Origin: an uncultured Syntrophorhabdus sp.
Lineage (GTDB): Bacteria; Desulfobacterota; Syntrophorhabdia; Syntrophorhabdales; Syntrophorhabdaceae
DNA length: 21,529 bases
Reading direction: 5' to 3'
NCBI GenBank assembly: GCA_964528665.1
Contig: CAZGTB010000069.1
Location: 1 to 21,529 of the forward strand
Part shown: positions 6,130 through 20,328 of the stretch, piece by piece
How the letters are laid out: every line of letters starts with the position of its first letter
Numbering within the stretch: the stretch's first letter is position 1
The notes under the pieces: model-generated
Databases searched by the model: none
Told to the model about the DNA's origin: nothing
The model's input: only the letters and a program-made list of their open reading frames with translations
Position numbers and translations under genes: made by a program

Positions 6130-6888
6130 TTAAGCGGCAGGACATGCCTTCATGCAGTTGAAACACAAATATTGAAAACCCATTTGGAGCACATGGTACA
6201 GACGCCAATATTCGATATCTTTGAGCATAGTCTTCTTTTCTTCCGGGGATGCATCGACCAGTTTTGTCCAGAATCGTATGTTCGCACCAAGTCCATAGGG
6301 CTCCAACACCCTCATACATTTCATCACATCGGTCTTCCCCTTTTCATTTAAGGCCTCAGCGGGGCAGCTTTCCACGCAGAAATTACATCCAGTACAAAGG
6401 TTGTCCTGAAGGAGCAAATCTGTCTCAAGCTCAAGGTCTGTGAGAACGGCAGAAAATATCACTTTGTTTTTAAATCGAGGATGATAAACAAGGTTGTTTC
6501 TTCCCAATACACCGAGACCTGCTGCCACTGCTGCGTGGCGCAATGACACGTCTGCCACAAGTCCTTTGGTTTCTCGACTCATCTCCATGGGAAACGTGGC
6601 AGGGACGGCCATGGCCCTGCTGTTTAGCTCTGTTTCCAGAAACCGCGTCATTCTGTAGTTAGATGCCCTGAGGAATGCCATCAAGTCGAGCCTTCCGTTC
6701 ATGGCAATCTGGGGGCTTAGGCTCTCGCAATTTGAAAGCTCTCTGAACGCAAGTACGACTATCGAACGTACTTCGGGAAAGAGTTTTGCAATATCAGGTG
6801 ACCGTGGACTCCGGTAATCCGCAACTGCAGTAACACCTATATCGTCTGCCCCTACTTGTTTTGCAAAGTTTTTGATCTTCTCTTTCAT
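6130..6888 (-). CDS. QueG/RdhA-superfamily-like iron-sulfur protein (2x[4Fe-4S] ferredoxin-type motifs)
   Basis: IKNFAKQVGADDIGVT and LRHAAVAAGLGVLGRNNLVYHPRF..KVIFSAVLTDLEL resemble the epoxyqueuosine reductase/reductive dehalogenase core. Cluster motifs are CTGCNFCVESCP (CxxCxxCxxxCP) and CFNCMKACP. ATG 6888 lies 5 nt after AAGGAGG, and the track start GTG 6891 is one codon upstream. At 253 aa the protein is too short to be a canonical QueG. Confidence 0.75.
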   Translation of the reverse strand: MKEKIKNFAKQVGADDIGVTAVADYRSPRSPDIAKLFPEVRSIVVLAFRELSNCESLSPQIAMNGRLDLMAFLRASNYRMTRFLETELNSRAMAVPATFPMEMSRETKGLVADVSLRHAAVAAGLGVLGRNNLVYHPRFKNKVIFSAVLTDLELETDLLLQDNLCTGCNFCVESCPAEALNEKGKTDVMKCMRVLEPYGLGANIRFWTKLVDASPEEKKTMLKDIEYWRLYHVLQMGFQYLCFNCMKACPAA

Positions 6889-7112
6889 CACTACCTCCTT
6901 AAAAATATATAATAAATCTTTGTGCGTTTTTTTTGTGAGCCTTTTTCAATTTAGATGTTGAGTGTTTCCGTGTTTAACATAAGAGAAAGAGCCTTCAGCT
7001 TCAACTCGTGAAATCCTCAATTTTATATCCTATGCATAATGCTCACCTTGTAAGTAAACATGTCTAGCTTATCCGTCTTTTCATTTTGAAAAATTGATCA
7101 ATACTAATTCCG

Positions 7113-7631
7113 TTATTCGACGATTTTCTCCTGATTCATAGTGAAGCACCATTTGCAGAATAGTTCTTTGGGATGAGGATCAGGAGGAGCGAACAAACAC
7201 TCGACCTTAATGTCCCTGTCAACTTCTTTGATAATGCTCACAAATTCACCTAAGTGCGTATCCTTGCAGCTATATTCTCCCACTCCTTTTATCAGTCGAG
7301 CCTCCTGGGAAGGGCAATGGGGGATGGAAACTATGATTTCCTCGTCTTTAGCCACGATTTCATATCCTGATATCATTGCCCAAGGGAAATATCTAAAAAC
7401 CTTGGCAAGGGCTTTCAGCCCCTTTTCTTCAATCGAGAATCTCTCTTTGATTTCCCGGGTCATGATCTTCCCCATCCTGTGCCACACTTCTTCGTTGATC
7501 TTAATCGCAGCATTGTAGCCACAGGTATGTTCTACCCCGAGAAACCAAAATCCATCCGTCCTTCTGAACTGGTTCAGCATAAATTCTACATATGTTTGAA
7601 GCTCTTCATTATTAAAATGGGGTGTCTTCAT
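7113..7631 (-). CDS. Small conserved cytosolic Cys/His-containing protein, DUF6125-like (function unknown)
   Basis: A 172-aa ORF with an ATG start and AAGGAAG upstream. The pattern DGFWFLGVE...W....K...REIK...I...GL..LAK...HCPSQ.AR...G..EYSCKD...EF...I...I.VECL.APPD.H......C.WCF matches my recollection of the DUF6125/ATC-hydrolase-like family. The family assignment is from memory only. Confidence 0.55.
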   Translation of the reverse strand: MKTPHFNNEELQTYVEFMLNQFRRTDGFWFLGVEHTCGYNAAIKINEEVWHRMGKIMTREIKERFSIEEKGLKALAKVFRYFPWAMISGYEIVAKDEEIIVSIPHCPSQEARLIKGVGEYSCKDTHLGEFVSIIKEVDRDIKVECLFAPPDPHPKELFCKWCFTMNQEKIVE

Positions 7632-7784: not shown

Positions 7785-9035
7785 TCAACCATTGGCGCGA
7801 TGAAGAGTTTCTCTTGTAAGGAGGACGCTCATTAGAGCGGCTATACTAACGTAGAGAAAGATCTGCATTGGCATTCTGTAGGCATACGCGGGATAAGCGC
7901 CCTGCATCCGGCCCACCGTATCCAGGGCATAACCAATCACAGGCTGGAATATCAATCCTCCAAAAAATCCTGCAAGGTTAGTGGCCCCAATTGTAGTTCC
8001 GGCTAGATTCGGTGGAAATGACTCTTTTACTGCAGAGAAACCCACGCTCGCAGGGGATCCAGCCATCATACCAGTAATGAAAAAAAGGATGTAAAGTCCT
8101 ATTATTGGCAAAGAATTGTAGAATATCAGCAATAAAGCCCAACATATACAATGGATCAAAGAAGAGCCGACAAGAACCAGCTTTCTACTGATAAACACCT
8201 TGTCCGATAAGTAGCCAAAAACGGGAGTTCCTATAATTATGGCAAGCGGAACCACCGAAAGAATGTTTCCTGCGTCAACCTTTTGGAGCTTATAAACATC
8301 CATCAGATATGGGCCTGCCCAAAGTCCGAAGAAACCAAAAAGAATACCTACCCTTAAGAAAAACCACACAGCCAATGGCCAGAAATGTTTTTCTGCGAGC
8401 ACCTGCTTTATTCCTTGGTTTCCTTTATTTCCTTGTGCGTGCACGCTTGGGCTCACCTGCGACGTGCATACCTGTGACTCTGGTCTATCCCTGACAATGA
8501 TCCACGTAAGAGCGGTGAAAACGGCGGTTATAAGGCCCAGAAAGATGAATAATCCTCTCCAGCTAAACACTTCCGAAAGAGCTGCGAGCGGTGTGGTTCC
8601 AAGAAACCACCCAATAGTCCCTATAGCCATAAACAGCCCCGATACTTGTGCATACTCACGAGCGTTGAACCACATCCCAAACACTTTCATGGCTGGGACG
8701 AAAATCGCTGAAACACCCAACCCAATGAGGATCCTCGAGAAAATCGCAGAATTCAAGCTTCCTGATAGTGCCAGAAGTAATGCACCCAATGCCCCAATCA
8801 ACCCAAATAATGTGGCAGTTTTCCGAGATCCCCAACGGTCTGACAGCATGCCTACGGGGACTTGCATTAAAGCATACGGATAAAAATACGCCGAACTCAA
8901 AATCCCCAAACCGATCCCAGATATTCCGAAGTCTCTGGTAAATTCTGGAGCGAGAACCGCAGGACATACCCTATGAAAATATAAGAGAAGATATTGTAAT
9001 GAAAAGATTGAAAAGATGTACCACCGATATCTCAT
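7785..9035 (-). CDS. MFS transporter, organic-anion (ACS/phthalate-permease-like) type
   Basis: A 12-TM-like hydrophobic profile. The N-terminal YRWYIFSIFSLQYLLLYFHRVCPAVLAPEF..DFGIS..GLGILSSAYFYPYALMQVPVGMLSDRWGSRK has the MFS motif-A region GxLSDRxGxR. ATG 9035 has an AAGGTGG SD 4 nt upstream. The track start TTG 9056 lies 7 codons further upstream. Confidence 0.85.
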   Translation of the reverse strand: MRYRWYIFSIFSLQYLLLYFHRVCPAVLAPEFTRDFGISGIGLGILSSAYFYPYALMQVPVGMLSDRWGSRKTATLFGLIGALGALLLALSGSLNSAIFSRILIGLGVSAIFVPAMKVFGMWFNAREYAQVSGLFMAIGTIGWFLGTTPLAALSEVFSWRGLFIFLGLITAVFTALTWIIVRDRPESQVCTSQVSPSVHAQGNKGNQGIKQVLAEKHFWPLAVWFFLRVGILFGFFGLWAGPYLMDVYKLQKVDAGNILSVVPLAIIIGTPVFGYLSDKVFISRKLVLVGSSLIHCICWALLLIFYNSLPIIGLYILFFITGMMAGSPASVGFSAVKESFPPNLAGTTIGATNLAGFFGGLIFQPVIGYALDTVGRMQGAYPAYAYRMPMQIFLYVSIAALMSVLLTRETLHRANG

Positions 9036-9280
9036 AACCCACCTTTTCTGTACCAAAGCACTTTTGATAGCAGCCTTGTTTCAAGGCTTTTGGGTTCTCC
9101 CCAATTGGCAACACATGCATAATCAGAGAACGGTAGGATATTACGGTGGTAGCCCCATCCCTTTAACTACAGCGTCATTACCTAGACCGGACGTTTCTGT
9201 TACACACCATAGAGACACAACCGGTCCTTGTCAGCTTATAAAAGATTTCCACATGTTCCTCTTGTGTAATACTATACTTT

Positions 9281-11149
9281 TCAGGCACCTTTTAATCCTA
9301 AACGTGGGTAGACAACCTGCCGCCAGAAGAGACTTAAAATTACCATATATCCAAACACGTTTAGGTACCACACTTGCGGAATAAGACAGGCACTTCCTAT
9401 TAGGATAACCGCCCTTTCTACAAAATTAAGGCTTACTCTTGCAAAACCCAGAAACGACATCGAGATCCCGCTTATCGCGATAAATGCTGTTACGATACGG
9501 AAGGCAGCATAGAAAAAGGAACCTCTGAGCAGCAGTTCGGGCGAGTACACGAAGAGAAATGGAACAATAAATGTTGGTGCCGATATCAAAAATGCAAGAT
9601 TTGTTGTTTTTAACGGATCTGTCTTGGCAATCCCGGCTGCAGCAAAAGAACACGGTGCTGAAGGTGGCGTAATATTGCCAAGGACACCGAAGTGAAATAC
9701 AAAGAGATGTGCTGCCATAGGGTCGACCCCAGCCTTAATGAGGGCCGGCGCTGCGAGGATTGCGAGGATAAGGTATGCCGTGACGGGCGGGAGGGGCAGT
9801 CCGATTATGAGCGAGGCTATTGCGGTCAGTACAAGAAGGATAAGCATGTTCCCTCCTGCCACATGAATAAGTATTTCTGAAAACCTCAAGCCTAGTCCTG
9901 TCAGGTTAATCACACCTTCAATGATTCCCGCGGAAGCACACGCCATGATTACAACCAGCGCAGTCTTAGGCCCATTCTCCAGAGCTAACAAAATCTTCTT
10001 TAATGACATGCGGGTACTCTTCCTGATCATGCTCACTGCAAATATAGCAACTACCGCCCAGAAACCGGCCTTTTTCGTTGAAACATCTGACACAATAAGT
10101 AGGTACAAAACAACCAGGATCGGGAGAAAAAGATGACCATATTCCTTCATGAGCGGACCCATTCTGGGAAGCTCTGCTTTGGGTACTTTCACAAGGCCGA
10201 GTTTATTCGCCTGGACTTGCATGAAAGTGAACACGGCTGCATAAAAGAGAAGCCCAGGTATTAAGGCTGCCCGCATAACATCGATGTAGCTTCCGCCGAT
10301 AAGTTCTGGAATGATGAATGCAGCAGCACCCATCACGGGCGGGACGAGCATCCCTCCTGTCGCGGCCACCGCCTCCATTGCTGCTGCCATCATGGGTTTA
10401 TAACCGGTCTTCACCATCAATGGTATCGCGAGTGTTCCAACCGCTACTGCATTGGCCGTCTGGCTCCCCGTCATCATTCCGAAAAGCAGGTTGGCCAAGA
10501 CAGCCGCCTTTGCGGCACCCCCTTTGAACCTCCCAAACAGACCGTAGCCAATGTTCGTAAAGGCCTGGCTTCCCCCTGTCTGTTCCATGAAAGCTCCGAA
10601 AATAAGGAAAATAATGATTACTGTAGCTGAAACGCCGACAGCTACCCCTAAAATACCCTCTGTACCCAAGAACATGTGAGCGACCACTCTTTCAAAGGTA
10701 TACCCACTATGAGCAAACATTGGTGGTAGATGCGTGCCAAAAGCCACATACGCAAGACTTAAGGCTACCAAAACGCACATGGTAAGGCCCATGAGCCGTC
10801 TTGTCGCTTCTCCAACAAGAACTATTGCAGCGGTGCCCACGATGCAGTCAACGGTGTTCGGCGTACCTTCTCTTCCGACAATGTCCTGATATTGTGTGAG
10901 CACATAGGCCCCGATGAAAACACTAAAAAATAGAAGGATATAATCCACTGCCGAGTAAAGCCACGAATATTTACCTTGAAGCTCCTTTTTCAACGGATAA
11001 AGGAGAAAAACAAGGAGTAGACCGAAACAAAGATGGATTGATCTCTGCTGCATCGCCGGAAGCTGTTGGACTCCCGCAGTGTAGACTTGAAAAAGGGACA
11101 TCGCAACAGCTGTAACAGTTATAATGTTCTTGGTTGTTAGCCATTTCAT
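9281..11149 (-). CDS. TRAP transporter fused permease (TAXI-type 4TM/12TM DctQ-DctM fusion)
   Basis: A 622-aa polytopic protein placed 30 nt downstream of a TAXI receptor gene. Its length and glycine/alanine-rich TM pattern are typical of fused TAXI-TRAP permeases. It has an ATG start with GGGGGA upstream. Confidence 0.88.
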   Translation of the reverse strand: MKWLTTKNIITVTAVAMSLFQVYTAGVQQLPAMQQRSIHLCFGLLLVFLLYPLKKELQGKYSWLYSAVDYILLFFSVFIGAYVLTQYQDIVGREGTPNTVDCIVGTAAIVLVGEATRRLMGLTMCVLVALSLAYVAFGTHLPPMFAHSGYTFERVVAHMFLGTEGILGVAVGVSATVIIIFLIFGAFMEQTGGSQAFTNIGYGLFGRFKGGAAKAAVLANLLFGMMTGSQTANAVAVGTLAIPLMVKTGYKPMMAAAMEAVAATGGMLVPPVMGAAAFIIPELIGGSYIDVMRAALIPGLLFYAAVFTFMQVQANKLGLVKVPKAELPRMGPLMKEYGHLFLPILVVLYLLIVSDVSTKKAGFWAVVAIFAVSMIRKSTRMSLKKILLALENGPKTALVVIMACASAGIIEGVINLTGLGLRFSEILIHVAGGNMLILLVLTAIASLIIGLPLPPVTAYLILAILAAPALIKAGVDPMAAHLFVFHFGVLGNITPPSAPCSFAAAGIAKTDPLKTTNLAFLISAPTFIVPFLFVYSPELLLRGSFFYAAFRIVTAFIAISGISMSFLGFARVSLNFVERAVILIGSACLIPQVWYLNVFGYMVILSLFWRQVVYPRLGLKGA

Positions 11150-11179
11150 GCTTTCCCCCAGTCTTAAACCGTTTGATTG

Positions 11180-12154
11180 TTACTTTTTGAAAATTCCCAC
11201 TTCCCTAAAATATTTTTCTGCGCCAGGATGAAAGGGAAACATAATCGTTCTCTTCACATTCTCTTGGTTCATCTCTTTGGCAATAGGATGGATTTCAATT
11301 AATTCGTTTCTATGTTCAAAGAGGGCTTTTGTTATCTTGTACACCAGTTCCGTGCTCACGCCGCTATGGGTTTCCAAAGGTGTGCCAAAGACCACAATGA
11401 CTGTATCCTTATCAATTCCCTTATAAGAACCAGTTTTCAATGTCTCACTATACAAATACGGATTTTCCTCCAGGAACTTTTTCAATACCTTATCATCGAC
11501 GGGAATAATTCTTATCTCTCTCCGGGCGCTCATCTCTTTAAGTGCGGGGATCGGGAATGCTCCCGAGATAAATCCCGCGTCGATACTTCCATCCTGCAAA
11601 CCTTCCACTACCTCTTTATAGCCAAGCCACACAGGCTTATACATATCTTTTGTTAAACCATGGGCCTCCAGCAGATCCTTGCTGATTTCGGAGGTTCCGC
11701 TACCAGCTGCTCCAAGGGCAACCCTTCTGCCTTTTAAATCATTATAAGTTTTTATGGGTGAGTTCTTGTAGACAACCAAATTGAGTCCAGATCCGTACAA
11801 AAAGGTTATCGCTCTGAGATCTGAGTAGGCCTTTGTAAAAGGCGGTTTCCCGCTATACCCGAGGTAAAGCAGTTTGGAATCACTGATTCCAAAAGCCCCC
11901 TGCCCCTTGCTTTTCTTCTCGTCAATAAACTTGATTGTCGCTGCCGACCCACCCGTTCCTTCAACCATCATCTGGATTTCTGGTACGTATTTGTTTACAA
12001 CTTTAGAAATGGCTCCCCCAAGAAAGTATGCGGTTCCACCCGAACCTGGGGTATAGATTGGCACTACCTCTTTTGCAGCAGTGGGTATGGGTTGACATAC
12101 TATAATGCTTAAGCTCACAATAACGGCTATTATTATCATTCCTAAGGTTTTCAT
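11180..12154 (-). CDS. TAXI-family TRAP transporter solute-binding receptor
   Basis: A 324-aa protein with a signal peptide (MKTLGMIIIAVIVSLSIIVCQP). GSGGTAYFLGGAISKVV, GTGGSAATIKF and RVALGAAGSGTE..S are hallmarks of TAXI (TRAP-associated extracytoplasmic immunogenic) receptors. AAGGAGG SD and ATG start. Confidence 0.9.
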   Translation of the reverse strand: MKTLGMIIIAVIVSLSIIVCQPIPTAAKEVVPIYTPGSGGTAYFLGGAISKVVNKYVPEIQMMVEGTGGSAATIKFIDEKKSKGQGAFGISDSKLLYLGYSGKPPFTKAYSDLRAITFLYGSGLNLVVYKNSPIKTYNDLKGRRVALGAAGSGTSEISKDLLEAHGLTKDMYKPVWLGYKEVVEGLQDGSIDAGFISGAFPIPALKEMSARREIRIIPVDDKVLKKFLEENPYLYSETLKTGSYKGIDKDTVIVVFGTPLETHSGVSTELVYKITKALFEHRNELIEIHPIAKEMNQENVKRTIMFPFHPGAEKYFREVGIFKK

Positions 12155-12174
12155 GTTTCCTCCTTAATTCTGAT

Positions 12175-12202
12175 GGGATACAAAGGGAATCCTTCGTATC
12201 CC
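12175..12202 (-). other. Stable intercistronic stem-loop between the ligase and TAXI receptor genes
   Basis: On the mRNA (minus) strand the sequence is GGGAUACGAAGG-AUUC-CCUUUGUAUCCC. That gives a 12-bp stem (one G-U) with a 4-nt loop. No U-tract follows, and the hairpin ends about 18 nt before the receptor SD. Confidence 0.5.
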
Positions 12203-12247
12203 TCTGCATCCCTCAATCCTGATTACTCCAATTGCGGACATAGCATG

Positions 12248-13822
12248 TTAAGTCCTCTTCTGCATTTCCAAATACTTTGGCCTCATTTTGACTTTTTCAA
12301 TCTTACCAGTTGGGTTTCTCATTACCTCGTCAAAAATAATCCGTCTAGGCCTCTTATACCTCGGCAGGTTCTGCTCAAAAAACTGGAATAACTCCTTCTC
12401 CGTCTCGTCGGAACCAGGTATGTCTGATTTTAGCTTAATTACCGCAGCAACTATCTCGCCGAGCCTGTCGTCGGGAAGCCCTATCACCCCCACATCGTGT
12501 ACCTTGGGATGAGTCTGTATGACCTCTTCTACTTCTGAGGGATAGACATTTTCGCCCCCGCAGATTATCAAATCTTTTTTCCTGTCCACGATCCAGTAGA
12601 AACCATCCTCATCCATTCTTGCCAAATCGCCGGTGTAAAGCCAACCGTCTTTAACGGTCTCAGCTGTTTTCTCCGGGTTCTTATAGTATTCCCTCATTAC
12701 ACCGTTTCCTCTAATTATGATCTCGCCAATCTCCCCCTGGGGCACATCATTTCCGAAGTCATCAACAAGTCGCGCTTCCCAGTTAAAGCCGGGTTTTCCT
12801 ATCGATCCAACTTTGTGCGGATTTTCAATGCCCAGGTGCAGGCTTTGCGGCCCCGTGCCTTCTGTCAGTCCGTAGTTTTCGTCAAAGAGCATATCTGGGA
12901 ATTCCTGTTTCCATTTGGTCATAAGGTTAGGCGGCACAGATTGCGCTCCATACATCACCAATCTCCATTGGCTTAAATCGTAATCCTCTTTCTTGAGTGT
13001 ACCCTTTTCCAACTCGGTCAGGATATCCTGAAGCCAAGGAACAAGGAGCATCACAACGGTGCATTTTTCTTTTTCCATAACCTCAAATATTGCTTCAGGC
13101 GTTATTTTATCACTCTGAATTACTGCTCGCTCACCGAGGATCAGGCTTGAGAGCCAATGTATGAAATCCCCAGTATGATATAAAGGTTTGAGAATAGCGA
13201 ACACGTCTCCGGGTTCTCGAAGCTTGTGTACCACTTCTATGATGGCTGCGTGTTCCATGTTGTTGTGCGTCAGAAGAATGGGCTTTGGCGCCCCTGTTGT
13301 ACCGGAGGTGAAATAGAGCCCGCAGGGATCCTGGGGCTCTATTGATACATGAAACGGCTCGGAAGGGGATCGGGCAAGCACCGCTTCAAGATCCTCCATA
13401 TCACCTGCTGCTGGCCCACCATTCACCAAAGACTTGTTTCGTATGGAAGGAAGGGCTCCCGAGGTCCGCACCCTGTCAACAAATTCCGCGTCAACAATTG
13501 CCACCTTCGGCTTGGTTATGTCTACACAATACTTAAAATCCTTATCATTAAATCGAAAATTGAGAGGCACTACGATTGCGCCTGTGCGGATGATGCCGAA
13601 ATACACTTCGAGCCAAGTTTTGGAGTTCATCATCCAATGCACTACCATGTCACCCTTCCCAACATCTCTATTCTTAAGCGCATTGGCGATCCTGTTTACT
13701 CTCTCATTGAACTCTTTCCAGGTGACCTGAACTCGCAGCTTTTTGCTCGGCACCCTTTCCACCAGTGCAACTCTGTTGGGATACATCCTGGCATTTCTTG
13801 CCACCATCTCCGAAATAGTCAT
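12248..13822 (-). CDS. AMP-forming acyl/aryl-CoA ligase (class I adenylate-forming enzyme)
   Basis: AMP-binding signature YFTSGTTGAPKPILLTHNN. The core also includes YGLTEGTG, WLYTGDLARMDEDGFYWIVDRKKDLII.GGENVYP.EVE and a C-terminal PRYKRPR...NPTGKI. A strong AGGAGGAGGAGG SD precedes the ATG, and the gene starts 27 nt after the UbiD-like stop. Confidence 0.9.
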   Translation of the reverse strand: MTISEMVARNARMYPNRVALVERVPSKKLRVQVTWKEFNERVNRIANALKNRDVGKGDMVVHWMMNSKTWLEVYFGIIRTGAIVVPLNFRFNDKDFKYCVDITKPKVAIVDAEFVDRVRTSGALPSIRNKSLVNGGPAAGDMEDLEAVLARSPSEPFHVSIEPQDPCGLYFTSGTTGAPKPILLTHNNMEHAAIIEVVHKLREPGDVFAILKPLYHTGDFIHWLSSLILGERAVIQSDKITPEAIFEVMEKEKCTVVMLLVPWLQDILTELEKGTLKKEDYDLSQWRLVMYGAQSVPPNLMTKWKQEFPDMLFDENYGLTEGTGPQSLHLGIENPHKVGSIGKPGFNWEARLVDDFGNDVPQGEIGEIIIRGNGVMREYYKNPEKTAETVKDGWLYTGDLARMDEDGFYWIVDRKKDLIICGGENVYPSEVEEVIQTHPKVHDVGVIGLPDDRLGEIVAAVIKLKSDIPGSDETEKELFQFFEQNLPRYKRPRRIIFDEVMRNPTGKIEKVKMRPKYLEMQKRT

Positions 13823-13849
13823 GCCTCCTCCTCCTGGACTCCCTGAATA

Positions 13850-15364
13850 CTACCAGCCGTGTTTCGCTAGGGTCTTTGCATAGTCGGTCTGCATGGATCG
13901 TACTTCACGAATCTGTTCCTCGGTGAACCATTTCTTCAGATCGATCTTGTCGACAGGATACTGGGGTCTCTGGAAATAGTGCTTCGTCTTGTACGGCTTC
14001 GTCGCATCGAATGCCATACCGCCTTCCCAGCCTCCTACGCCGCTTATCCTTGCCTCAATGGGTTGTGCAGCTATTCCCCTGGCACCGCGAGGGAGCTTCA
14101 ATATATCATAATCGGGATCGACCCTGCTCTCTATGGCCCAGATGACATCATCGGCGTTATAGATGTCCACATCTTCATCGACGGCAACAGCCATTCGTAT
14201 CCCGGGCGCATCAGCAAGAGCAGCAAGAAGGATGTTTCGCTGGAATCCTTCATCCTGAGCTCTTTCCTTGCGAATCTGGAAAATTACTCCGCTGCCCCAT
14301 TTGAAGTAGTCAGGGATGTTAACGTCTACACAAATTCCCGGGGCTATCCTTTCGGCCATCTCAAAGAACGAGGCCTCTCTAGACAGGTCAAAGCACGTGT
14401 ATTCAAGTCCAGCCGCGAGTGGCGTGTAAAAGATCGGATTCTTGCGCATGGTTATTGCCGTGACTGTGAGTTTACGGACTTTCCATGCAGTCCCCATGTA
14501 CCCGACCCATTCTGGGAAGAAGTTCGTCTCTCCCTGTCTTTGTATGCCTAATTTCTCGGATTCGTCGCTTTCCCACACATTCTCAGAGGTTGGTTCGAGG
14601 TAGCCTTCGAGCACAATCTCGGCATCCGCAATCGAGTAAGCATCAACTGTTCTTGCCTTTACCAGCTCAATTGGGGCGCCTTGGAATCCGCCGGCTATTC
14701 CGAGCTCATCGCCACCGTGAGGTACTATCGTCCTGACATGCCATGCTCCGGCAACCCACCCGGCTGCTGGTGGAGGATTGATATTGACGGTCACGGGAAT
14801 CCTGTCATCTCGATGGGTTTTAAAGCACATCTGGCCGATGTGAGTAATCTGGGCCGTTGAGATGGATGCCCAATTCTTTCCCCTGAAATGGATCCTATTG
14901 AAGGAAATGTTGGTGTCTCCCTTTCTGTAAACATCAGTCAGAAGCTGGTTGCCGCAACCCATAATACGACCAGCATCAAATTCAGTATGCTTGATTATTG
15001 GCAGGGTAGCGAGAACATCGATATTCTTGTCGATAACCACTTCCTGAACTGGAGCATCTTTAACAATCTTCGGAGCAATAGGGTCGCGAATAGCATCCAC
15101 AAACTTGAATTTCATCTTGTTGGGGTCTTCTATACCGAAGATATCAGCCCACGGTTCACGACGCCCGAAAAAGTTTGTTATGTTGACATAATCCGGATAA
15201 CCTTTAATCTTCTCGAATTTGAGAATCGGACCTTTTTCAAAGGACTTTGCAATGGCTGCGACCTCGTATATGGGATCAACCTCTTTCTTGACATGCATTA
15301 CATAGCCCTTCTTATCCAGGTACTCAAGGGCGCTTCTAACACTTCTTGCATCTTTTTTGCTCAT
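13850..15364 (-). CDS. UbiD-family (prFMN-dependent) reversible decarboxylase
   Basis: A 504-aa protein of UbiD length and layout. The N-terminal SVRSALEYLDKKGYVMHVKKEVDPIYEVAAIAK matches the family's LR.fl..Le..Gel..i...vdp..Eiaai opening. AAGGAGG SD, ATG start and TAG stop. A UbiX gene lies in the same locus. Confidence 0.9.
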   Translation of the reverse strand: MSKKDARSVRSALEYLDKKGYVMHVKKEVDPIYEVAAIAKSFEKGPILKFEKIKGYPDYVNITNFFGRREPWADIFGIEDPNKMKFKFVDAIRDPIAPKIVKDAPVQEVVIDKNIDVLATLPIIKHTEFDAGRIMGCGNQLLTDVYRKGDTNISFNRIHFRGKNWASISTAQITHIGQMCFKTHRDDRIPVTVNINPPPAAGWVAGAWHVRTIVPHGGDELGIAGGFQGAPIELVKARTVDAYSIADAEIVLEGYLEPTSENVWESDESEKLGIQRQGETNFFPEWVGYMGTAWKVRKLTVTAITMRKNPIFYTPLAAGLEYTCFDLSREASFFEMAERIAPGICVDVNIPDYFKWGSGVIFQIRKERAQDEGFQRNILLAALADAPGIRMAVAVDEDVDIYNADDVIWAIESRVDPDYDILKLPRGARGIAAQPIEARISGVGGWEGGMAFDATKPYKTKHYFQRPQYPVDKIDLKKWFTEEQIREVRSMQTDYAKTLAKHGW

Positions 15365-15413
15365 TGTACTACCTCCTTAAGAGTTTTTATGCGGTGCATT
15401 TGACACGTACAGA

Positions 15414-15430
15414 TTGCAATTAGGATGCCT
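15414..15430 (-). promoter_or_regulatory. Sigma-54 (-24/-12) promoter for the ubiD-like/ligase/TAXI-TRAP operon
   Basis: The minus strand reads aGGCATcctaaTTGCAa, with exactly 10 nt between GG and GC. This is a close match to TGGCAC-N5-TTGCA. The -12 element lies about 50 nt upstream of the ubiD-like ATG. Confidence 0.7.
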
Positions 15431-15480
15431 TTTTTCACTAACTCTTTAACTTATTAGAATTACACAGGTTAAATTTTCCA

Positions 15481-15509
15481 TTGACAAAAAATTCCTGCCA
15501 AGGTATTGT
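15481..15509 (+). promoter_or_regulatory. Sigma-70-type promoter for the activator gene
   Basis: Perfect -35 TTGACA (15481-15486), a 17-nt spacer and -10 TATTGT (15504-15509). The -10 box overlaps the first half-site of the palindrome. Confidence 0.5.
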
Positions 15510-15531
15510 CCATATTATGGACATGTCCATA
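15507..15531. promoter_or_regulatory. Three-half-site palindromic operator/UAS TGTCCATA-t-TATGGACA-TGTCCATA
   Basis: Half-sites lie at 15507-15514, 15516-15523 and 15524-15531. They form two overlapping perfect palindromes. The site sits 80-100 bp upstream of the -24 element of the divergent sigma-54 promoter and over the -10/+1 region of the activator's own promoter. Confidence 0.6.
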
Positions 15532-15544
15532 AAAGAGAATATTA

Positions 15545-17011
15545 TTGGAATTATCAATGAGAAATGACGAAAGAACGCTATTATCAAGCTTTTTCGAAGT
15601 CCTCGGCCGATACTCACTCAATGATATTGTTGGGTGGGCTCTCAGGTTCTGTTTTCGAAATCCTTACGAAAGCATTACTATTGTTGATAAAAACGGTCGT
15701 GTCCAATTTATGGACAAACCGACGGAGGAGTTCTTTGGGCTAAAGCAGGGAGAAGCAGCGGGGATGGACATTCGTGACCTTGTTCCTCACACAAATGTGC
15801 CACTTACGATAGCTACCGGCAAACCACAGATAGGGAAAATATGGGAAGTAAGGGGAATTAAAAGGATCAGCTCAGTCTATCCACTTATAAAGAATGGAGA
15901 AATCATTGGTGCTGTCGGTAAAATACTTTTTCATTCCTTGGAAGAAATCGAAAGAATCAATGAAGAAATACAGAGACTTAACAAAGAAATACATTATCTC
16001 AAACAAAAGGAAAAAACCGAATATAGCTCGCTATATACCTTTAACAATATCCTTGGTAACAGTGCGCGCATCCGAGAAACGATTGAGATCGCAAAGAAAA
16101 TTGCGCCCCTTGATACGGACGTACTCATTGTCGGAGAAAGCGGAACCGGCAAGGAGTTGTTCGCCCACAGCATTCATAGCCTCACGCATCCAGACAGACC
16201 GTTTGTTAAAATTAACTGTCCGGCCATTCCCTTTGAACTGGCAGAATCACAGTTATTTGGTTATGAAAAGGGAGCATTCACCGGCGCAACCACCGTCGGC
16301 AAGCCTGGAGCCTTTGAAGCGGCAGAGGGTGGCACGGTATTTCTGGACGAAATCTCTTCTCTGCCCCTTTCCATCCAGGCAAAACTTCTTCGCGTGCTCC
16401 AGGAGCGTGAAGTAACAAGGCTTGGTAGCTCGAAGACAAAAAAAATAAATTTCAGATCCATTGCTGCTACAAATGTAGACTTACGCAGATTAGTACAGGA
16501 AAGAAAGTTTCGTCACGACCTATACTACAGAGTGGCAAAAGCCATAGTCCCTATCCCTCCACTGAGAGAGAGAAGAGAAGATATACCTTTCTATCTCAAC
16601 AGTTTTCTGGAAATGATTAATCGGTCGTTCAAGACCAGCATTCGGGGATTTTCGCGCGAAGCCTTCCAAGCCCTAATTCAATATGACTGGCCGGGTAACG
16701 TGAGGGAATTGATAAATGTGTTGGAACAGGTAGCGATCCGAGCCATCACTGATGAAGAGATAAGCATAGAAGCTCTTCCAGAGGACGTGTGTTTACTGAA
16801 AATAGGATTGGCAGGGAAAGATATCAACACCAGTAACGTCGTAGGCATAAAACAACACATGACAAGAGTGGAAAGGGATGCAATCATTTCCGCGCTCAAG
16901 GAGACTGGCGGAAACAGACAAAAAACAGCACAACTTCTCAAGATGCCAAGATCAACATTGTATAAGAAACTGGCAGCCTACAACATCTCTAACGATTCCT
17001 CGACCCTTTGA
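15545..17011 (+). CDS. Sigma-54-dependent transcriptional activator (PAS-like sensor, AAA+ domain, Fis-type HTH)
   Basis: Walker A GESGTGKELFA, the sigma-54 contact loop GAFTGA (EKGAFTGA), Walker B VFLDEI, and R-finger region RVLQEREVTRLGS. The C-terminal HTH is GGNRQKTAQLLKMPRSTLYKKL. The N-terminal ~130 aa look PAS-like (ITIVDKNGRVQFMDKPTEEFFG). The start is either TTG 15545 or ATG 15557. Confidence 0.9.
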   Translation: MELSMRNDERTLLSSFFEVLGRYSLNDIVGWALRFCFRNPYESITIVDKNGRVQFMDKPTEEFFGLKQGEAAGMDIRDLVPHTNVPLTIATGKPQIGKIWEVRGIKRISSVYPLIKNGEIIGAVGKILFHSLEEIERINEEIQRLNKEIHYLKQKEKTEYSSLYTFNNILGNSARIRETIEIAKKIAPLDTDVLIVGESGTGKELFAHSIHSLTHPDRPFVKINCPAIPFELAESQLFGYEKGAFTGATTVGKPGAFEAAEGGTVFLDEISSLPLSIQAKLLRVLQEREVTRLGSSKTKKINFRSIAATNVDLRRLVQERKFRHDLYYRVAKAIVPIPPLRERREDIPFYLNSFLEMINRSFKTSIRGFSREAFQALIQYDWPGNVRELINVLEQVAIRAITDEEISIEALPEDVCLLKIGLAGKDINTSNVVGIKQHMTRVERDAIISALKETGGNRQKTAQLLKMPRSTLYKKLAAYNISNDSSTL

Positions 17012-17211
17012 GTTACCTACTTGGGACGTACAGACCAAGCTAATCATCCATTAAACCTTCCTCCATAATTCCGTAGTTTGAGGATTCAGGTACATCGCCA
17101 CACAGTTAAACCAAGATATGAAAGCCCATCTGAAGTGCATGATTGAGACACTATCTAATAGTCAGCTATCCTTCCGCTCATTGGCTTTTGTACTGGACAA
17201 CACGGCACGAT

Positions 17212-17228
17212 AGTTGCACGTTTGCCGA
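17212..17228 (+). promoter_or_regulatory. Sigma-54 (-24/-12) promoter upstream of ubiX
   Basis: cGGCACgatagTTGCAc has GG at 17213-17214 and GC at 17225-17226, with the exact 10-nt spacing. It lies about 43 nt upstream of the ubiX ATG, which has a TAGGAGGT SD. Confidence 0.7.
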
Positions 17229-17268
17229 CCAATCATTCTAATCTATCTCTACATTAGGAGGTATAAAT

Positions 17269-17853
17269 ATGACTAGGATCGTTATTGGTATATCGGGAGC
17301 AACGGGCGTGATATACGGGATACGGATGTTGAAAGCCCTTGACGAGAGTGGAGTGGAGACTCACCTGGTCATCACCCAGTCAGCTATTAAGAATATGCTG
17401 ATTGAAACAGAATACACCATGGCAGATCTCGAACCCTTCGCGTCAAAAATCTATGACGTGGATGATGTGGGCGCAGCTATTGCCAGTGGTTCCTTTCCGG
17501 TGGATGGGATGGTCATAGCGCCTTGCTCTATAAAAACCCTTTCCGCTGTGGCAAATTCATTCAACTATAATCTCCTCATTAGGGCGGCTGATGTTAATCT
17601 TAAAGAAAGGAGGAGACTCGTTTTGCTTGTGAGGGAAACCCCTTTCCATGAGGGACATCTCGATCTCATGATGCGAGTAACACGAATGGGCGGTGTTATT
17701 ATGCCCCCGGTGCCTGCTTTCTACCATATGCCAAAAACTATAGAAGATATCATCAATCAGTCTGTCGGCAAGGTTCTTGATCTCTTTTCGATCGATGCCT
17801 CTCTCTTCAGGCGATGGGGCACCAGTCCAAAGGAAGAAATGAAGATTGTTTAG
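17269..17853 (+). CDS. ubiX: UbiX-family flavin prenyltransferase (prFMN synthase)
   Basis: A 194-aa protein carrying RIVIGISGATGVIYGIRMLKAL, THLVITQSA, MVIAPCSIKTLSAVANSF..NLLIRAADV.LKERR.LVL..RETP and MPPVPAFYH. These are the canonical UbiX/Pad1 motifs. Confidence 0.93.
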   Translation: MTRIVIGISGATGVIYGIRMLKALDESGVETHLVITQSAIKNMLIETEYTMADLEPFASKIYDVDDVGAAIASGSFPVDGMVIAPCSIKTLSAVANSFNYNLLIRAADVNLKERRRLVLLVRETPFHEGHLDLMMRVTRMGGVIMPPVPAFYHMPKTIEDIINQSVGKVLDLFSIDASLFRRWGTSPKEEMKIV

Positions 17854-17913: not shown

Positions 17914-18135
17914 TGACCTGTCCCCAATAAACCGGTCCAGGTGTTGAGGTATACTCTGGGCTGAATTTGACATAGGGAGGCAGAAAGAATGAAGAAGAAT
18001 GGGTTCACAACGGAACAGATCATCGGCAAGCTCAGGGAGGCTATGTGTTTCTCCCATAGGGCGACATGGCCAGGCAAGAAATTAGTTGGCTTGGGATCAC
18101 CGGGCCATACCATCTTTCGCTGTGCCGGCTAATCT
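17914..18135 (+). mobile_element. Decayed IS3-family (IS407-group-like) left end: terminal repeat plus frameshifted orfA stub
   Basis: TGACCTGTCCCC starts at 17914, and IS3-family ends begin with TG. An SD plus ATG at 17989 opens MKKNGFTTEQIIGKLREA, the typical IS3 OrfA N-terminus. The HTH continues only after a frame change (LGITGPYHLSLCRL versus the consensus LGIS..TFYRWRK), with a stop in between. The rest of the element is absent. Confidence 0.6.
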
Positions 18136-18376
18136 ATTTCAATCCGTAATGTTCAATTTTACAGGAAATTACCATACAACCTTTGTAGGTGCAAGTCGCT
18201 ATTTTTTATCATCAACCACTTTTGAAAAATTGTCCCGGGAAATTCTACCAAAAGTCTTTTTGAAACAACCGAGATTGTGTCATTCTCGTGCATACCAAAT
18301 TACAAATGGTAATCTCCCTTGCAGTACATACCCATCAAGCGGCGTTGTCGTAAATATGCTTGACTTATACAATTCC

Positions 18377-18404
18377 TTGACAGATTAACAAAACATGCTA
18401 ATCT
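18377..18404 (+). promoter_or_regulatory. Sigma-70-type promoter upstream of the small ORF and radical-SAM gene
   Basis: -35 TTGACA (18377-18382), a 16-nt spacer and an extended -10 TGcTAATCT (18396-18404). Confidence 0.4.
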
Positions 18405-18615: not shown

Positions 18616-18655
18616 CAGGCAGACAGGACTTTCATCTTGTCTGCCTGATTCTTTG
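18616..18655 (+). terminator. Hairpin/attenuator between the small ORF and the radical-SAM gene
   Basis: A perfect 10-bp stem pairs CAGGCAGACA (18616-18625) with TGTCTGCCTG (18638-18647). The loop is 12 nt and is followed by the moderately U-rich ATTCTTTG. A second small hairpin, GTTGCAG-gt-CTGCAAC, lies at 18589-18604. Confidence 0.5.
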
Positions 18656-18666
18656 AGAAATTGACT

Positions 18667-19728
18667 ATGACAACATCCAACAAACCCATGGAATTTTTCT
18701 TCCAGTGGCATCTTACTGAGCGATGTAACCTCAGATGCAGCCATTGCTATCAGGAAAGCAATCAGATGGAAGAGGTCTCTCTTGCCAATGCAAAAAAGAT
18801 CGTCGATACGGCGTATGGTACGATCAAGAGCTGGTCCGACGCCTACGAAATCGATTTTTCGCCAAGCTTTAATGTAACCGGCGGTGAACCTTTCCAGTCT
18901 TCCTATCTACAGGATATCCTCCACTACCTTATGGTAAAGGGATTTGACATATTCTTACTCACCAACGGGACGATGATCGACAGGGGAAAAGCACACATGC
19001 TGGCTGAGATCCCGGTTCAAGGTGTTCAGGTGAGCATCGAGGGACCGGAGGAGGTCCATGACCAAATCAGAGGCAAGGGCAGTTTCAAAAAGGCTATCAA
19101 CGGCGTCGACCAGCTTCTGAGTACAGGCCTTTCGGTCACTCTCAACGTGACCCTTTCGGATATTAATTGTGACTATTTGGGAGAATTAGTGGATCTTGCA
19201 GCGTCAGTGGGCGCCCAGCGACTTGGTTTCTCCAGGCTCGTTCCTTACGGCAGGGGCAAAGACCTCATTGACAGGATGATCCCGAAGAAGAAATTAAGGC
19301 AGGTCTATAGGGAAGTCTTGGAAATAAGGAATGAGAAGGTCCACATTGCTACAGGCGATCCTGTTGCGTCGCAGATGGGTGAAGAAGTAGATGATGGAAA
19401 TTCTGCCATACCTCTGGGAGGTTGCGCTGCTGGGGTCTCTGGCATAACTATCCTTCCGGACGGAACACTCACCCCATGCAGGAGATTTGGCATCCCCATC
19501 GGCAACATCCTCAATGATAAGCTCAGAGAAATATGGGCAGTGTCGCCGGTTCTTGAGTCGCTCCGGACTAAAGCAGCGTATAAAGGGAAATGTGGCAGGT
19601 GTCCACGATGGTCACAATGCCGGGGCTGCCGGGCCATAGCCTACGCATACTCCCTCTCCTGCGGGAAGGAAGACTATCTCGCCGAAGATCCGCAATGTTT
19701 TATTGATAATTCTTCATCTTATGCGTGA
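18667..19728 (+). CDS. Radical SAM enzyme with a full C-terminal SPASM domain (PqqE/AhbD/anSME-like); no N-terminal RRE domain
   Basis: CNLRCSHCY (CxxxCxxC) lies within the first ~30 residues, and GGEP is present. The SPASM pattern is visible as GGC-x12-G-x4-C (GGCAAGVSGITILPDGTLTPC), then CGRCPRWSQCRGC (C-x2-C-x5-C-x2-C), then DPQC. The start is ATG 18667, with TTG 18661 and ATG 18688 as alternatives. Confidence 0.9.
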   Translation: MTTSNKPMEFFFQWHLTERCNLRCSHCYQESNQMEEVSLANAKKIVDTAYGTIKSWSDAYEIDFSPSFNVTGGEPFQSSYLQDILHYLMVKGFDIFLLTNGTMIDRGKAHMLAEIPVQGVQVSIEGPEEVHDQIRGKGSFKKAINGVDQLLSTGLSVTLNVTLSDINCDYLGELVDLAASVGAQRLGFSRLVPYGRGKDLIDRMIPKKKLRQVYREVLEIRNEKVHIATGDPVASQMGEEVDDGNSAIPLGGCAAGVSGITILPDGTLTPCRRFGIPIGNILNDKLREIWAVSPVLESLRTKAAYKGKCGRCPRWSQCRGCRAIAYAYSLSCGKEDYLAEDPQCFIDNSSSYA

Positions 19729-19782: not shown

Positions 19783-20328
19783 ATGGCGAAATGGAATATT
19801 GATCCGGATCACACAGTCGGTGAATTCACCATTAAACACATGATGGTAACTCCCGTCCATGGTCAGTTTAACAAAGTTTCTGGCACAATCTTCTTCGATC
19901 CCGCTGATCCGGCCAGTGCTTCAGTCGAGATAGAAATCGATATGGCAGGTATTTACACTGGTGTAGATCGCAGGGATAACCATCTTCAAAGCGCTGATTT
20001 TTTTGATGTAGAAAAATATCCCACAATGCACTTCAAGAGTACCCTTATTGAGGTGGTTGGGCTCAATCACTGTAAGGTCAACGGTGATCTCACAATTCAC
20101 GGAATAACCCGGTCCGTGATGTTTGATGTTATATTTAATGGTCCTTCGCGATTCTTCGACGAGGAAGAAAACCAGATGTATACCACATTCGGCTTCCGTG
20201 CCACCACGTGCATCAATCGCGAAGACTTCGGATTGAAGTGGAATCTTGGTATAGAAGATGGCGGCTTCATGGTGGGTAAGCATGTGGACATCGTCTTTAA
20301 TGCCGAGGCAGATCTATTAAATGAATAA
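19783..20328 (+). CDS. YceI-family (lipid/polyisoprenoid-binding beta-barrel) protein, no signal peptide
   Basis: WNIDPDHTVGEFTIKHMMVTPVHGQFNKVSGTIFFDP, RDNHLQSADFFDVEKYPTMHFKST, GDLTIHGITRSV and INREDFGL are the canonical YceI-like domain motifs. AAAGGAG SD. The gene starts 55 nt after the radical-SAM stop. Confidence 0.9.
   Translation: MAKWNIDPDHTVGEFTIKHMMVTPVHGQFNKVSGTIFFDPADPASASVEIEIDMAGIYTGVDRRDNHLQSADFFDVEKYPTMHFKSTLIEVVGLNHCKVNGDLTIHGITRSVMFDVIFNGPSRFFDEEENQMYTTFGFRATTCINREDFGLKWNLGIEDGGFMVGKHVDIVFNAEADLLNE

Follow-up and report, generated by a model that had tools for sequence, protein, structure and literature searches.

What substrate is served by a locus in which a decarboxylase, a coenzyme A (CoA) ligase and an importer are packed behind one promoter? 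The question is raised by a 21,529-nt stretch of contig CAZGTB010000069.1 from an uncultured Syntrophorhabdus sp. (hereafter the window, meaning this whole stretch), where genes for a UbiD-family decarboxylase, an AMP-forming CoA ligase, a TAXI-type receptor and a fused TRAP permease lie divergent from a sigma-54 activator gene and ubiX. An earlier note had proposed import, thioesterification and decarboxylation as the logic of the locus, and this remains the best reading. We give a probability of about 0.6 to a substrate-inducible catabolic funnel that would import a carboxylic acid, convert it to its CoA ester and then decarboxylate it; the acid is most likely a phthalate-isomer-type aromatic dicarboxylate. 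We infer the aromatic dicarboxylate by analogy with related systems; the narrower proposal that it is one of the three phthalate isomers is somewhat less likely than not. Phthalate isomers are mass-produced as plastic monomers and form the cores of plasticizers. To our knowledge, only two gene sets for their anoxic degradation have been characterized, one for o-phthalate (a CoA-transferase or ligase with phthaloyl-CoA decarboxylase, PCD) and the other comprising one isophthalate ligase.

An open reading frame (ORF) check of the window placed six genes exactly where the earlier note had put them, together with the gaps of 27, 93 and 30 nt among the ubiD, ligase, TAXI and TRAP genes and both -24/-12 promoter elements. 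These genes, and an MFS transporter gene that is probably the fifth of the cassette, are as follows:

7785..9056, minus strand: MFS transporter of the anion:cation symporter / D-galactonate subfamily (PF07690, 164.6 bits)
9035, minus strand: alternative start of the MFS gene, giving 416 aa
9281..11149, minus strand: fused TRAP (DctQM-type) permease of a TAXI-TRAP importer, 622 aa (TIGR02123, 585 bits; cutoff 320.65)
11180..12154, minus strand: TAXI-family periplasmic solute receptor, 324 aa (TIGR02122, 243.9 bits; cutoff 84.35)
12248..13822, minus strand: AMP-forming acyl/aryl-CoA ligase, FadD-like ANL class, 524 aa (PF00501 and PF13193)
13850..15364, minus strand: UbiD-family decarboxylase, dependent on prenylated flavin mononucleotide (prFMN), PCD-like subfamily, 504 aa (UbiD_N, UbiD and UbiD_C)
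15545..17011, plus strand: sigma-54 activator, PAS / AAA+ (GAFTGA) / Fis-type helix-turn-helix (HTH_8), 488 aa
17269..17853, plus strand: UbiX flavin prenyltransferase, 194 aa (NF004685, 258.7 bits; cutoff 188)

Curated thresholds were passed by all gene families except the ligase subfamily. UbiX was also recovered by TIGR00421 (249.8 bits; cutoff 108.9), and the MFS protein scored 152.9 bits with TIGR00893, under the cutoff of that model. The ribosome-binding sites before ubiD and ubiX are strong. We saw no small ORF in the three gaps between cassette genes and no convincing terminator between the minus-strand genes, and Rfam and tRNA scans of the window returned nothing. The identical UbiD protein, in the same gene order, is encoded on three Logan-assembled contigs (SRR13723393/96/97). 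The order is not due to chance, since ubiD, ligase, TAXI and TRAP genes follow one another in the same way on independent contigs of other organisms. This locus is a real sigma-54-controlled operon; curated family models and coordinates bear out the UbiX assignment, the sigma-54 wiring and the TAXI-TRAP adjacency that had been noticed before.

Related loci of other uncultured anaerobes, cited here by L numbers, carry the cassette in several forms. Identities to the window proteins are given for each, followed by the regulator; MAG stands for metagenome-assembled genome:

L085/L086, JGI and Logan contigs: UbiD 80%, ligase 66%, TAXI 68%, TRAP 73%, MFS 65%; GntR/FCD regulator
L087/L088, ENA/NCBI contigs: UbiD 72%, ligase 67%, TAXI 65%, TRAP 71%, no MFS; GntR/FCD regulator
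L002, Syntrophorhabdus sp. PtaU1.Bin058: UbiD 81%, ligase 69%, TAXI 25% (unrelated type), TRAP 37%, MFS 60%; sigma-54 activator 58%
L097 (= L004), Desulfobacterales MAG: UbiD 71%, ligase 59%, TAXI 20% (unrelated type), TRAP 30%, no MFS seen; sigma-54 activator 42%
L003, Syntrophales MAG: UbiD 75%, ligase 60%, NMT1-type binding protein in place of TAXI; no TRAP, MFS or regulator seen
L001, Syntrophorhabdales MAG: UbiD 85%, TAXI 60%, TRAP 68%, contig ends before any MFS; sigma-54 activator 59%

Ligase orthologues (59-69% identical) come directly after ubiD in L002, L085, L087 and L097; in L003 the gene for the NMT1-type binding protein lies between the two. In L001, L085 and L087 the TAXI receptor (60-68%) and the TRAP permease (68-73%, same position) are conserved as well, and MFS orthologues (60-65%) directly follow the TRAP permease gene in L085/L086 and L002. 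The place of the MFS gene is taken in L087/L088 by genes for SDR, aldehyde oxidoreductase and DctPQM proteins, tightly spaced after the cassette. Because the ubiD-ligase-TAXI-TRAP(-MFS) set recurs at 59-81% identity in L002, L085/86, L087/88 and L097 under different regulators, its genes are evidently selected as a unit. Transporters and regulators are exchangeable across these loci, which leaves UbiD and the FadD-like ligase as the stable core. Judged from this pattern of inheritance, the cassette behaves as a catabolic funnel in which two enzymes would work on one substrate. Among the orthologous cassettes, a PaaK-like gene was detected only at L097, some 6 kb upstream.

All three domains of the decarboxylase score over cutoff (PF20695, 45.5 bits; PF01977, 121.6 bits; PF20696, 53.3 bits). 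Its best match in the PDB was the phthaloyl-CoA decarboxylase of Thauera (Pcd, 8oz5/8pmk), at 346 bits (E 2e-102) over residues 7-503, and the other families scored lower: AroY 165, the UbiD-like 6h6v 139, E. coli UbiD 63 and Fdc1 57 bits. The grouping that the earlier note had asked about is thus with PCD, and not with quinone-type UbiD or with free-acid decarboxylases such as AroY. Over a full-length alignment, the protein is 39% identical to the PCD of A. aromaticum EbN1 (WP_011255033). The motifs NR..FR, DE.GIAG and ADAE.VLEG are conserved between the window UbiD and the solved Pcd, and a HMMER alignment shows N152..R157, H175, D219-E220 and AE249-IVL-E253-G to be shared between the two; R157, DE and AE..EG are shared with AroY too. 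By Fdc1 numbering, these may correspond to the metal- and prFMN-binding residues and the Glu-Arg-Glu network.

A neighbor-joining tree of 41 UbiD sequences (200 bootstraps) put the window protein in a clade with L001, L002, L003, L085, L087 and L097 (71-85% identity) at 100% bootstrap. Its sister clade, also at 100%, holds L092, L093, L005, L098 and L099, whose UbiD proteins are 59-66% identical to that of the window. EbN1 PCD falls, with many MAG genes, in the PCD clade (98.5%), and the window clade lies outside it. We also searched 1.84 billion cluster representatives (clustered at 50%) with the window UbiD. At E <= 1e-30, 131 clusters matched, but only some 15-20 full-length ones scored above about 235 bits before scores fell to the level of other UbiD proteins, so the PCD-like subfamily is compact. 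The closest named relatives are Syntrophorhabdales MAGs such as Syntrophorhabdus sp. PtaU1.Bin058, and no named isolate protein stands among the best 120 UbiD homologs, all at least 50% identical. None of the 80 genome loci listed, out of at least that many, is from S. aromaticivorans, D. cetonica or Thauera, which we do not count as evidence. On these alignments and this tree, we place the window UbiD in the PCD-like subfamily, in a clade of its own, and not as a PCD ortholog.

UbiD enzymes are reversible, and carboxylase plus aryl-CoA ligase pairs occur in the anaerobic degradation of polycyclic aromatic hydrocarbons (PAHs) (PMC12016498). The window UbiD might accordingly be imagined as a carboxylase of an unsubstituted or phenolic aromatic, with the ligase trapping the acid as its CoA ester, as proposed for benzene and naphthalene. 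We regard this as very improbable: the operon has two carboxylate-type importers, phenylphosphate carboxylase models score very low (49 and 45 bits), multi-subunit carboxylase partners are missing, and the ligases of PAH pathways are PaaK-like or benzoate-CoA-ligase-like (PMC12016498).

A second, distant UbiD paralog, 25-30% identical to the window protein, is encoded in L001 (294-1805, minus strand) and L003 (7888-9321, plus strand). JGI annotates such paralogs in relatives as 2,5-furandicarboxylate decarboxylase-like. The L001 copy is HmfF-like and sits where the window has ubiX. The phthalate plasmid region of EbN1 also has such UbiD paralogs (L081, 3720-5234).

The earlier note had paired the decarboxylase with an activating enzyme, and the wider subfamily is usually found beside one too: of 61 PCD-like genes flanked by 3 kb or more on each side, 34 have a gene for a CoA ligase or a CoA-transferase within 3 kb. 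In the window, the ligase gene begins 27 nt downstream of ubiD. The PCD clade usually adjoins a pair of SPT CoA-transferase subunit genes, most of its members being followed by both. In the sister clade, a class III CoA-transferase gene always comes directly after the UbiD gene, and never a FadD-like ligase gene; L098 has only a 102-aa fragment of the transferase, followed by a PaaK-like ligase. This pairing of the sister clade with class III CoA-transferases supports a CoA-ester substrate. Phthaloyl-CoA is itself made in two ways, by a CoA-transferase in denitrifiers and by a ligase in sulfate reducers (PMC13040137), and the alternation of ligase and transferase within the subfamily mirrors these two documented routes.

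The same evidence bears on a reversed order, in which UbiD would act on the free diacid (e.g., terephthalate to benzoate) and the ligase would activate the monoacid product. Most characterized UbiD enzymes do use free acids, and AroY, VdcC and HmfF-like proteins are the next-best families after PCD. For terephthalate consortia, earlier metagenome studies put forward decarboxylation to either benzoate or benzoyl-CoA, as summarized in PMC9516798, and gene order does not fix reaction order. However, the nearest characterized enzyme is a CoA-ester decarboxylase (346 versus 165 bits), the subfamily travels with CoA-transferases and ligases, and a transferase partner makes little sense for a free-acid decarboxylase. 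Nor does the ligase belong to the benzoate-CoA-ligase or PaaK types, with which anaerobes activate aryl monoacids. We therefore consider decarboxylation before activation quite unlikely and retain the sequence of thioester formation followed by decarboxylation.

The ligase has the ANL core motifs TSGTTGAPKP, YGLTEG and GKIEK. Its best PDB match is M. tuberculosis FadD5 (263 bits); to E. coli PaaK it is 24% identical over a partial alignment, with PF13193 instead of PF14535. The best curated model is the "fatty-acid" type PRK06187 (411.5 bits, under its cutoff of 476), and the remaining models all score far under their own cutoffs. Family models thus favor a fatty-acid grouping at a score under cutoff, one half of what the earlier note had counted against its proposal. 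Despite these models, strict co-inheritance with the UbiD gene argues for the enzyme being the ligase of the pathway. As far as sequence goes, the FadD-like ligase would be a new, third type of activating enzyme coupled to this UbiD clade.

Several related loci point to aromatic substrates. L092 encodes a 4-hydroxybenzoyl-CoA-reductase-like molybdenum enzyme, an HGD-D protein (benzoyl-CoA-reductase/dehydratase family) and UbiX; L025 has an Hcr-like molybdenum-enzyme set, two amidohydrolase_2 genes, an ANL ligase and two UbiD genes; and L098 combines its PaaK-like ligase with acetophenone-carboxylase-like subunits. The host order, Syntrophorhabdales, is known for syntrophic aromatic degradation (PMC9516798).

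These loci also have to be set against a non-aromatic substrate, namely an aliphatic alpha,beta-unsaturated or other dicarboxylate whose CoA ester would be decarboxylated to an enoyl-CoA for beta-oxidation. UbiD chemistry works on acrylic-type acids, as that of Fdc1 does (PMC7976604). The sister loci L090, L093 and L005 carry thiolase and DUF35 genes, with hydratase and dehydrogenase genes added in L093, the ligase is FadD-like, and reported TAXI ligands are mostly aliphatic. Against this, the closest characterized enzyme is PCD, other related loci have Hcr-like, HGD-D, PaaK-like and acetophenone-carboxylase-like genes, and the host lineage is specialized on aromatics (PMC9516798). Thiolase/DUF35 sets also serve beta-oxidation of the aryl-succinate type, as in the bbs operon. 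An aliphatic substrate is improbable, and an aromatic acid remains the preferred reading.

The thiolase/DUF35 loci of the sister clade are an uncharacterized pathway in their own right. L093, L090 and L005 (9986-15366) share UbiD, a class III CoA-transferase, a 466-aa HMG-CoA-synthase-like/DUF35 fusion and a thiolase, and in L090 and L093 they stand under a sigma-54 activator 58-60% identical to that of the window. L093 (1-15593) has in addition enoyl-CoA hydratase, 3-hydroxyacyl-CoA dehydrogenase, acyl-CoA dehydrogenase and ligase genes. A further recurrent neighbor is a gene for a tungsten-type aldehyde:ferredoxin oxidoreductase (AOR), found beside PCD-like UbiD genes of the superclade that includes the window and not beside the PCD clade. 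Such genes occur in L006, L017 and L023 and at the following positions:

L087, 16053-21518: SDR and AOR genes directly after the cassette
L098, 35-2752: AOR with poly-ferredoxin and a ThiS-like protein
L099, 7103-9821: AOR with poly-ferredoxin and a ThiS-like protein

This gene content suggests that some of these pathways may make the carboxyl group that is to be removed, by oxidizing an alcohol or aldehyde substituent.

The TAXI receptor begins with a hydrophobic leader (an N-terminal signal peptide), and TIGR02123 covers residues 8-612 of the 622 in the TRAP permease, a single fused Q-M membrane subunit. Against the o-phthalate cluster of EbN1, the receptor is 24-25% and the permease 33% identical. 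The residues that contact glutamate in VcGluP are Y45, Q93 and E125 (PMC11574862). Their equivalents are A42, D92 and S122 in the window receptor and W, H and A in the EbN1 receptor, and the signature A, D, S/A is kept in L001, L085 and L087. By these positions the receptor is neither glutamate-like nor EbN1-like and appears to be a distinct TAXI type. The earlier note had expected a TAXI system dedicated to such a substrate to be informative in itself. As a concept it is no longer new, since a dedicated o-phthalate TAXI-TRAP has been described (Sanz et al. 2020, as cited in PMC11574862 and PMC13040137); what does stand is that the receptor itself is different.

Within the group of orthologous UbiD-ligase pairs, the receptor has been swapped at least three times, among the window-type TAXI, two unrelated TAXI types (20-26%) and an NMT1/SsuA-type protein. 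The swapped receptors lie within these stretches:

L002, 5249-7867: TAXI of an unrelated type
L097, 13285-16417: TAXI of an unrelated type
L003, 5190-6281: NMT1-type binding protein

These swaps amount to a natural experiment on which receptors bind the same ligand.

One assignment to a known substrate would make the window genes orthologs of the o-phthalate pathway of obligate anaerobes, phthalate-CoA ligase (PCL) plus PCD as in Desulfosarcina cetonica. There, o-phthalate is activated by an ATP-dependent ligase and decarboxylated by a UbiD-like PCD (PMC13040137, PMC9516798). A Desulfobacterales MAG carries a window-type cassette (UbiD 71%, ligase 59%), and denitrifier o-phthalate clusters also use TAXI-TRAP. 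The homolog list and a published tree speak indirectly against that pathway: no protein of D. cetonica, Desulfobacula toluolica or any other isolate is among the best 120 homologs, at least 50% identical, and the sulfate-reducer enzymes, which are treated as PCDs, form their own clade (PMC8269228), while the window clade falls outside the sampled PCD clade. The low identity to the EbN1 receptor and its other pocket positions argue in the same direction. On these indirect grounds, orthology with D. cetonica PCL and PCD is unlikely.

A more speculative possibility, which we consider rather unlikely, is that terephthalate, or another benzenedicarboxylate without assigned genes, is degraded by obligate anaerobes through this cassette, which would then be their missing route. 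It would entail a dedicated TAXI-TRAP/MFS uptake system, a new FadD-type aryl-dicarboxylate:CoA ligase and a new terephthaloyl-CoA-type decarboxylase clade. The name PtaU1 presumably hints at a terephthalate-wastewater reactor (our own reading of the MAG name), and the UbiD encoded there is 81% identical to that of the window. According to a 2026 review (PMC13040137), no anaerobic terephthalate pathway has been elucidated genetically or biochemically, and no description of terephthaloyl-CoA enzymes was found in the literature searched. This gap and the 81% ortholog in the PtaU1 MAG are why we keep terephthalate open, and the cassette is a concrete, testable candidate for its anaerobic route.

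Inducibility is suggested by four elements around ubiD, the activator gene and ubiX:

15415..15430, minus strand: sigma-54 (-24/-12) promoter AGGCATCCTAATTGCA of the ubiD operon, some 50 nt before ubiD
17203..17218, plus strand: second sigma-54 -24/-12 element, CGGCACGATAGTTGCA, 51 nt upstream of ubiX
15507..15523, unstranded: upstream activator site 1, TGTCCATATTATGGACA, a palindrome some 85 bp upstream of the -24 element
15700..15716, unstranded: upstream activator site 2, TGTCCAATTTATGGACA, lying 193 bp from site 1, within the activator gene at its 5' end

The element before ubiX, CGGCACGATAGTTGCA, is the only match in the window to TGGCAC-N5-TTGCW with one mismatch. Allowing up to two mismatches, the -24/-12 pattern was found 14 times in the window against 10.8 expected, which is not rarer than chance and rules out such matches as significant on their own. 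The two elements are credible because of their position and their conservation across loci. A GG-N10-GC element lies upstream of ubiD in every related locus with a divergent sigma-54 activator (AGGCATAAGCATTGCA in L001, TGGCACGGGAATTGCT in L002, TGGCAGGACCATTGCA in L004 and CGGTATGCTTGTTGCA in L093), and in the sister locus L093, TGGTATGCTACTTGCA precedes ubiX by about 50 nt. No -24/-12 element was found upstream of ubiD in the GntR-regulated orthologous loci L085 and L087.

The palindrome TGTCY-N7-RGACA has exactly two exact matches in the window, none of them near the ubiX promoter. In the set of 99 loci, it is matched exactly by sigma-54 loci of this clade and by one unrelated locus only. 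L002 has two copies (1613-1629 and 1798-1814) with 185 bp spacing, in the same layout as the window, and there is one copy each in L001 (3481-3497) and L004/L097 (9781-9797). The sequence fits the NifA-like pattern TGT-N11-ACA, and this distribution makes the palindromes very probably the binding sites of the activator. One of them overlaps sigma-70-like promoter matches of the activator gene (15481-15545), which suggests that the activator may regulate its own gene. The activator protein itself has GESGTGKE (Walker A) and GAFTGA, with matches to PF00158 (212.3 bits), PF02954 (50 bits), PF25601 and, just at cutoff, PF00989. Its probable start is ATG 15557, giving 484 aa. Activators 58-60% identical, N-terminus included, are divergent from ubiD in L001, L002, L090 and L093.

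Taken together, the locus would work as follows. The PAS-containing activator would sense the substrate or a derivative, bind the two TGTCY-N7-RGACA palindromes and open the ubiD operon promoter and, probably, the one before ubiX. The TAXI receptor and the fused permease, possibly with the MFS symporter, would import the acid, and the FadD-like ligase would spend ATP to make its mono-CoA thioester. By analogy with PCD and isophthaloyl-CoA decarboxylase (IPCD), UbiD with UbiX-made prFMN would then remove the remaining free carboxyl group to give an aryl-CoA such as benzoyl-CoA, which would enter the housekeeping pathway of the host.

A number of points weigh against this scheme. Identity to PCD is only 39% and the window UbiD lies outside the PCD clade, so transfer of a substrate by homology is weak. 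The best ligase model is of the fatty-acid type, the sequence leaves the order of ligation and decarboxylation unfixed, and L001 has no ligase gene between ubiD and TAXI. Part of the sister clade occurs in clusters resembling beta-oxidation (L090, L093 and L005, with thiolase and DUF35). On the transport side, the pocket-equivalent D92, an aspartate, is not obviously suited to a dianion, and in L002, L097 and L003 unrelated TAXI or NMT1-type proteins stand in for the receptor. Reports of TAXI ligands have so far named mostly aliphatic acids (glutamate, and butyrate, fumarate and acetate from knockout phenotypes), with o-phthalate as the exception (PMC11574862). Finally, the clade is often met in metagenomes from soil and sediment; a natural substrate would account for this no less well than a xenobiotic one.

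Elsewhere in the window, the MFS gene is closely followed, on its own strand, by genes for a QueG/reductive-dehalogenase-like Fe-S protein (weak matches, under cutoffs) and a DUF6125 protein (6130-6891 and 7113-7631, both minus strand). The pair is probably unrelated to the module, since it occurs only on contigs of the same organism (L082) and not in orthologous cassettes. After ubiX come a 100-aa ORF with no family match (18086-18388) and a radical-SAM/SPASM protein (18661-19728), with a strong terminator-like hairpin between them at 18616-18647. The radical-SAM protein scores best with the models for heme b synthase AhbD (170.6 bits) and NirJ2, far under cutoff in each case. We considered it as a conserved anaerobic prFMN maturase because L093 has a radical-SAM gene as well, and rejected this when the two proteins proved unrelated; the small ORFs beside the two genes are likewise unrelated. 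Farther downstream is a YceI-like protein (19783-20328, plus strand; PF04264, 171.9 bits), for which no link to the module was found. At 4876-5763 (plus strand), three successive ORFs in different frames (77, 128 and 55 aa) jointly resemble one secreted OmpA-like protein (weak OmpA/DUF5666 match; C-terminus ...RRVDVRV) and are possibly a frameshifted pseudogene or an assembly error. The region 978-4411 is an ordinary neighborhood of the envelope-modification type, where a PMT/ArnT-like membrane glycosyltransferase gene (978-2708, plus strand) is convergent with genes for an OmpR-type response regulator (3734-4411, minus strand) and a HAMP histidine kinase (2647-3795, minus strand).

Both the logic of activation followed by decarboxylation and the use of TAXI-TRAP for o-phthalate were known already. 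What is new is a well-supported, uncharacterized decarboxylase clade, the type of activating enzyme coupled to it, a distinct type of TAXI receptor and a defined sigma-54 operator. Together they describe a compact and widespread cassette of five genes, in which a separate decarboxylase clade goes with a TAXI receptor type of its own and a third type of activating enzyme. Should the substrate prove to be one of the known isomers, the cassette would still supply marker genes for the anaerobic degradation of aryl dicarboxylates in Syntrophorhabdales, Syntrophales and Desulfobacterales, give the little-explored TAXI family another ligand and offer an activator/operator pair usable as a biosensor.

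Among the closest known systems, the o-phthalate module on plasmid 2 of the denitrifier Aromatoleum aromaticum EbN1 has the same composition in outline. It consists of ubiX, PCD, two SPT CoA-transferase subunits, a TAXI receptor and a fused TRAP permease, so that both loci combine UbiX, a PCD-like UbiD, a CoA-activating enzyme and a TAXI-TRAP importer (identities of 48% for UbiX, 39% for UbiD and 33% for the permease). The activating enzymes differ, being an ATP-dependent FadD-like ligase in the window and a succinyl-CoA-dependent class III CoA-transferase in EbN1; no gene for a class III CoA-transferase was found in the window, where the ligase stands in its place. The window UbiD lies outside the PCD clade, the window TAXI receptor is only 24-25% identical with other pocket residues, and the window has a sigma-54 activator, whereas none is annotated in the EbN1 stretch examined.

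The isophthalate cluster of Syntrophorhabdus aromaticivorans UI comprises isophthalate:CoA ligase (IPCL), a 12-15 kDa hypothetical protein, IPCD and UbiX, and thus shares with the window an ATP-dependent CoA ligase, a UbiD-type acyl-CoA decarboxylase and UbiX, in the same bacterial order. Junghare et al. (2019) reportedly saw no transporter among the isophthalate-induced proteins. IPCL is a PaaK-type enzyme of 48.7 kDa encoded beside the small hypothetical protein (PMC9516798), and IPCD has the accession WP_028893368 (PMC7976604). The window ligase has 524 aa, is FadD-like and belongs to another family in its C-terminal domain, and the window lacks a small partner gene of the SynarDRAFT_0374 type. 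With a different ligase class and no such partner gene, the locus is not the IPCL/IPCD cluster, and the suggestion that it might be that very cluster has to be given up. Published IPCL primer patterns gave 0 and then 3 matches in metagenome contigs, and the three encode no PaaK or UbiD and are chance matches; protein searches with the PaaK-like ligase of L098 and the second UbiD paralog of L001 returned no S. aromaticivorans entry, and no isolate was named in three cluster look-ups.

With the PCL (JCM12296_RS19390) and PCD of D. cetonica, an obligate anaerobe, the window shares an ATP-dependent ligase followed by a UbiD-type decarboxylase (PMC13040137). The sister clade (L092, L093, L005, L098 and L099) holds the closest relatives outside the cassette clade, some of which also share the activator family (60% identity) and the activator-ubiX arrangement. 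It differs in having a CoA-transferase for the ligase and no TAXI-TRAP, and in its larger clusters, which contain a tungsten-type aldehyde oxidoreductase with ferredoxin and a ThiS-like protein, a PaaK-like ligase, acetophenone-carboxylase-like genes, or a set of thiolase, DUF35, hydratase and dehydrogenase genes. The control of the locus, finally, resembles that of NtrC/NifA-type systems, with a -24/-12 promoter, a GAFTGA AAA+ activator encoded divergently from the target and, 80-280 bp away, palindromic upstream sites of the TGT-N11-ACA type. It departs from them in that the window activator has a PAS-type sensor and no receiver domain at its N-terminus, and in that one of its sites lies inside its own coding region.

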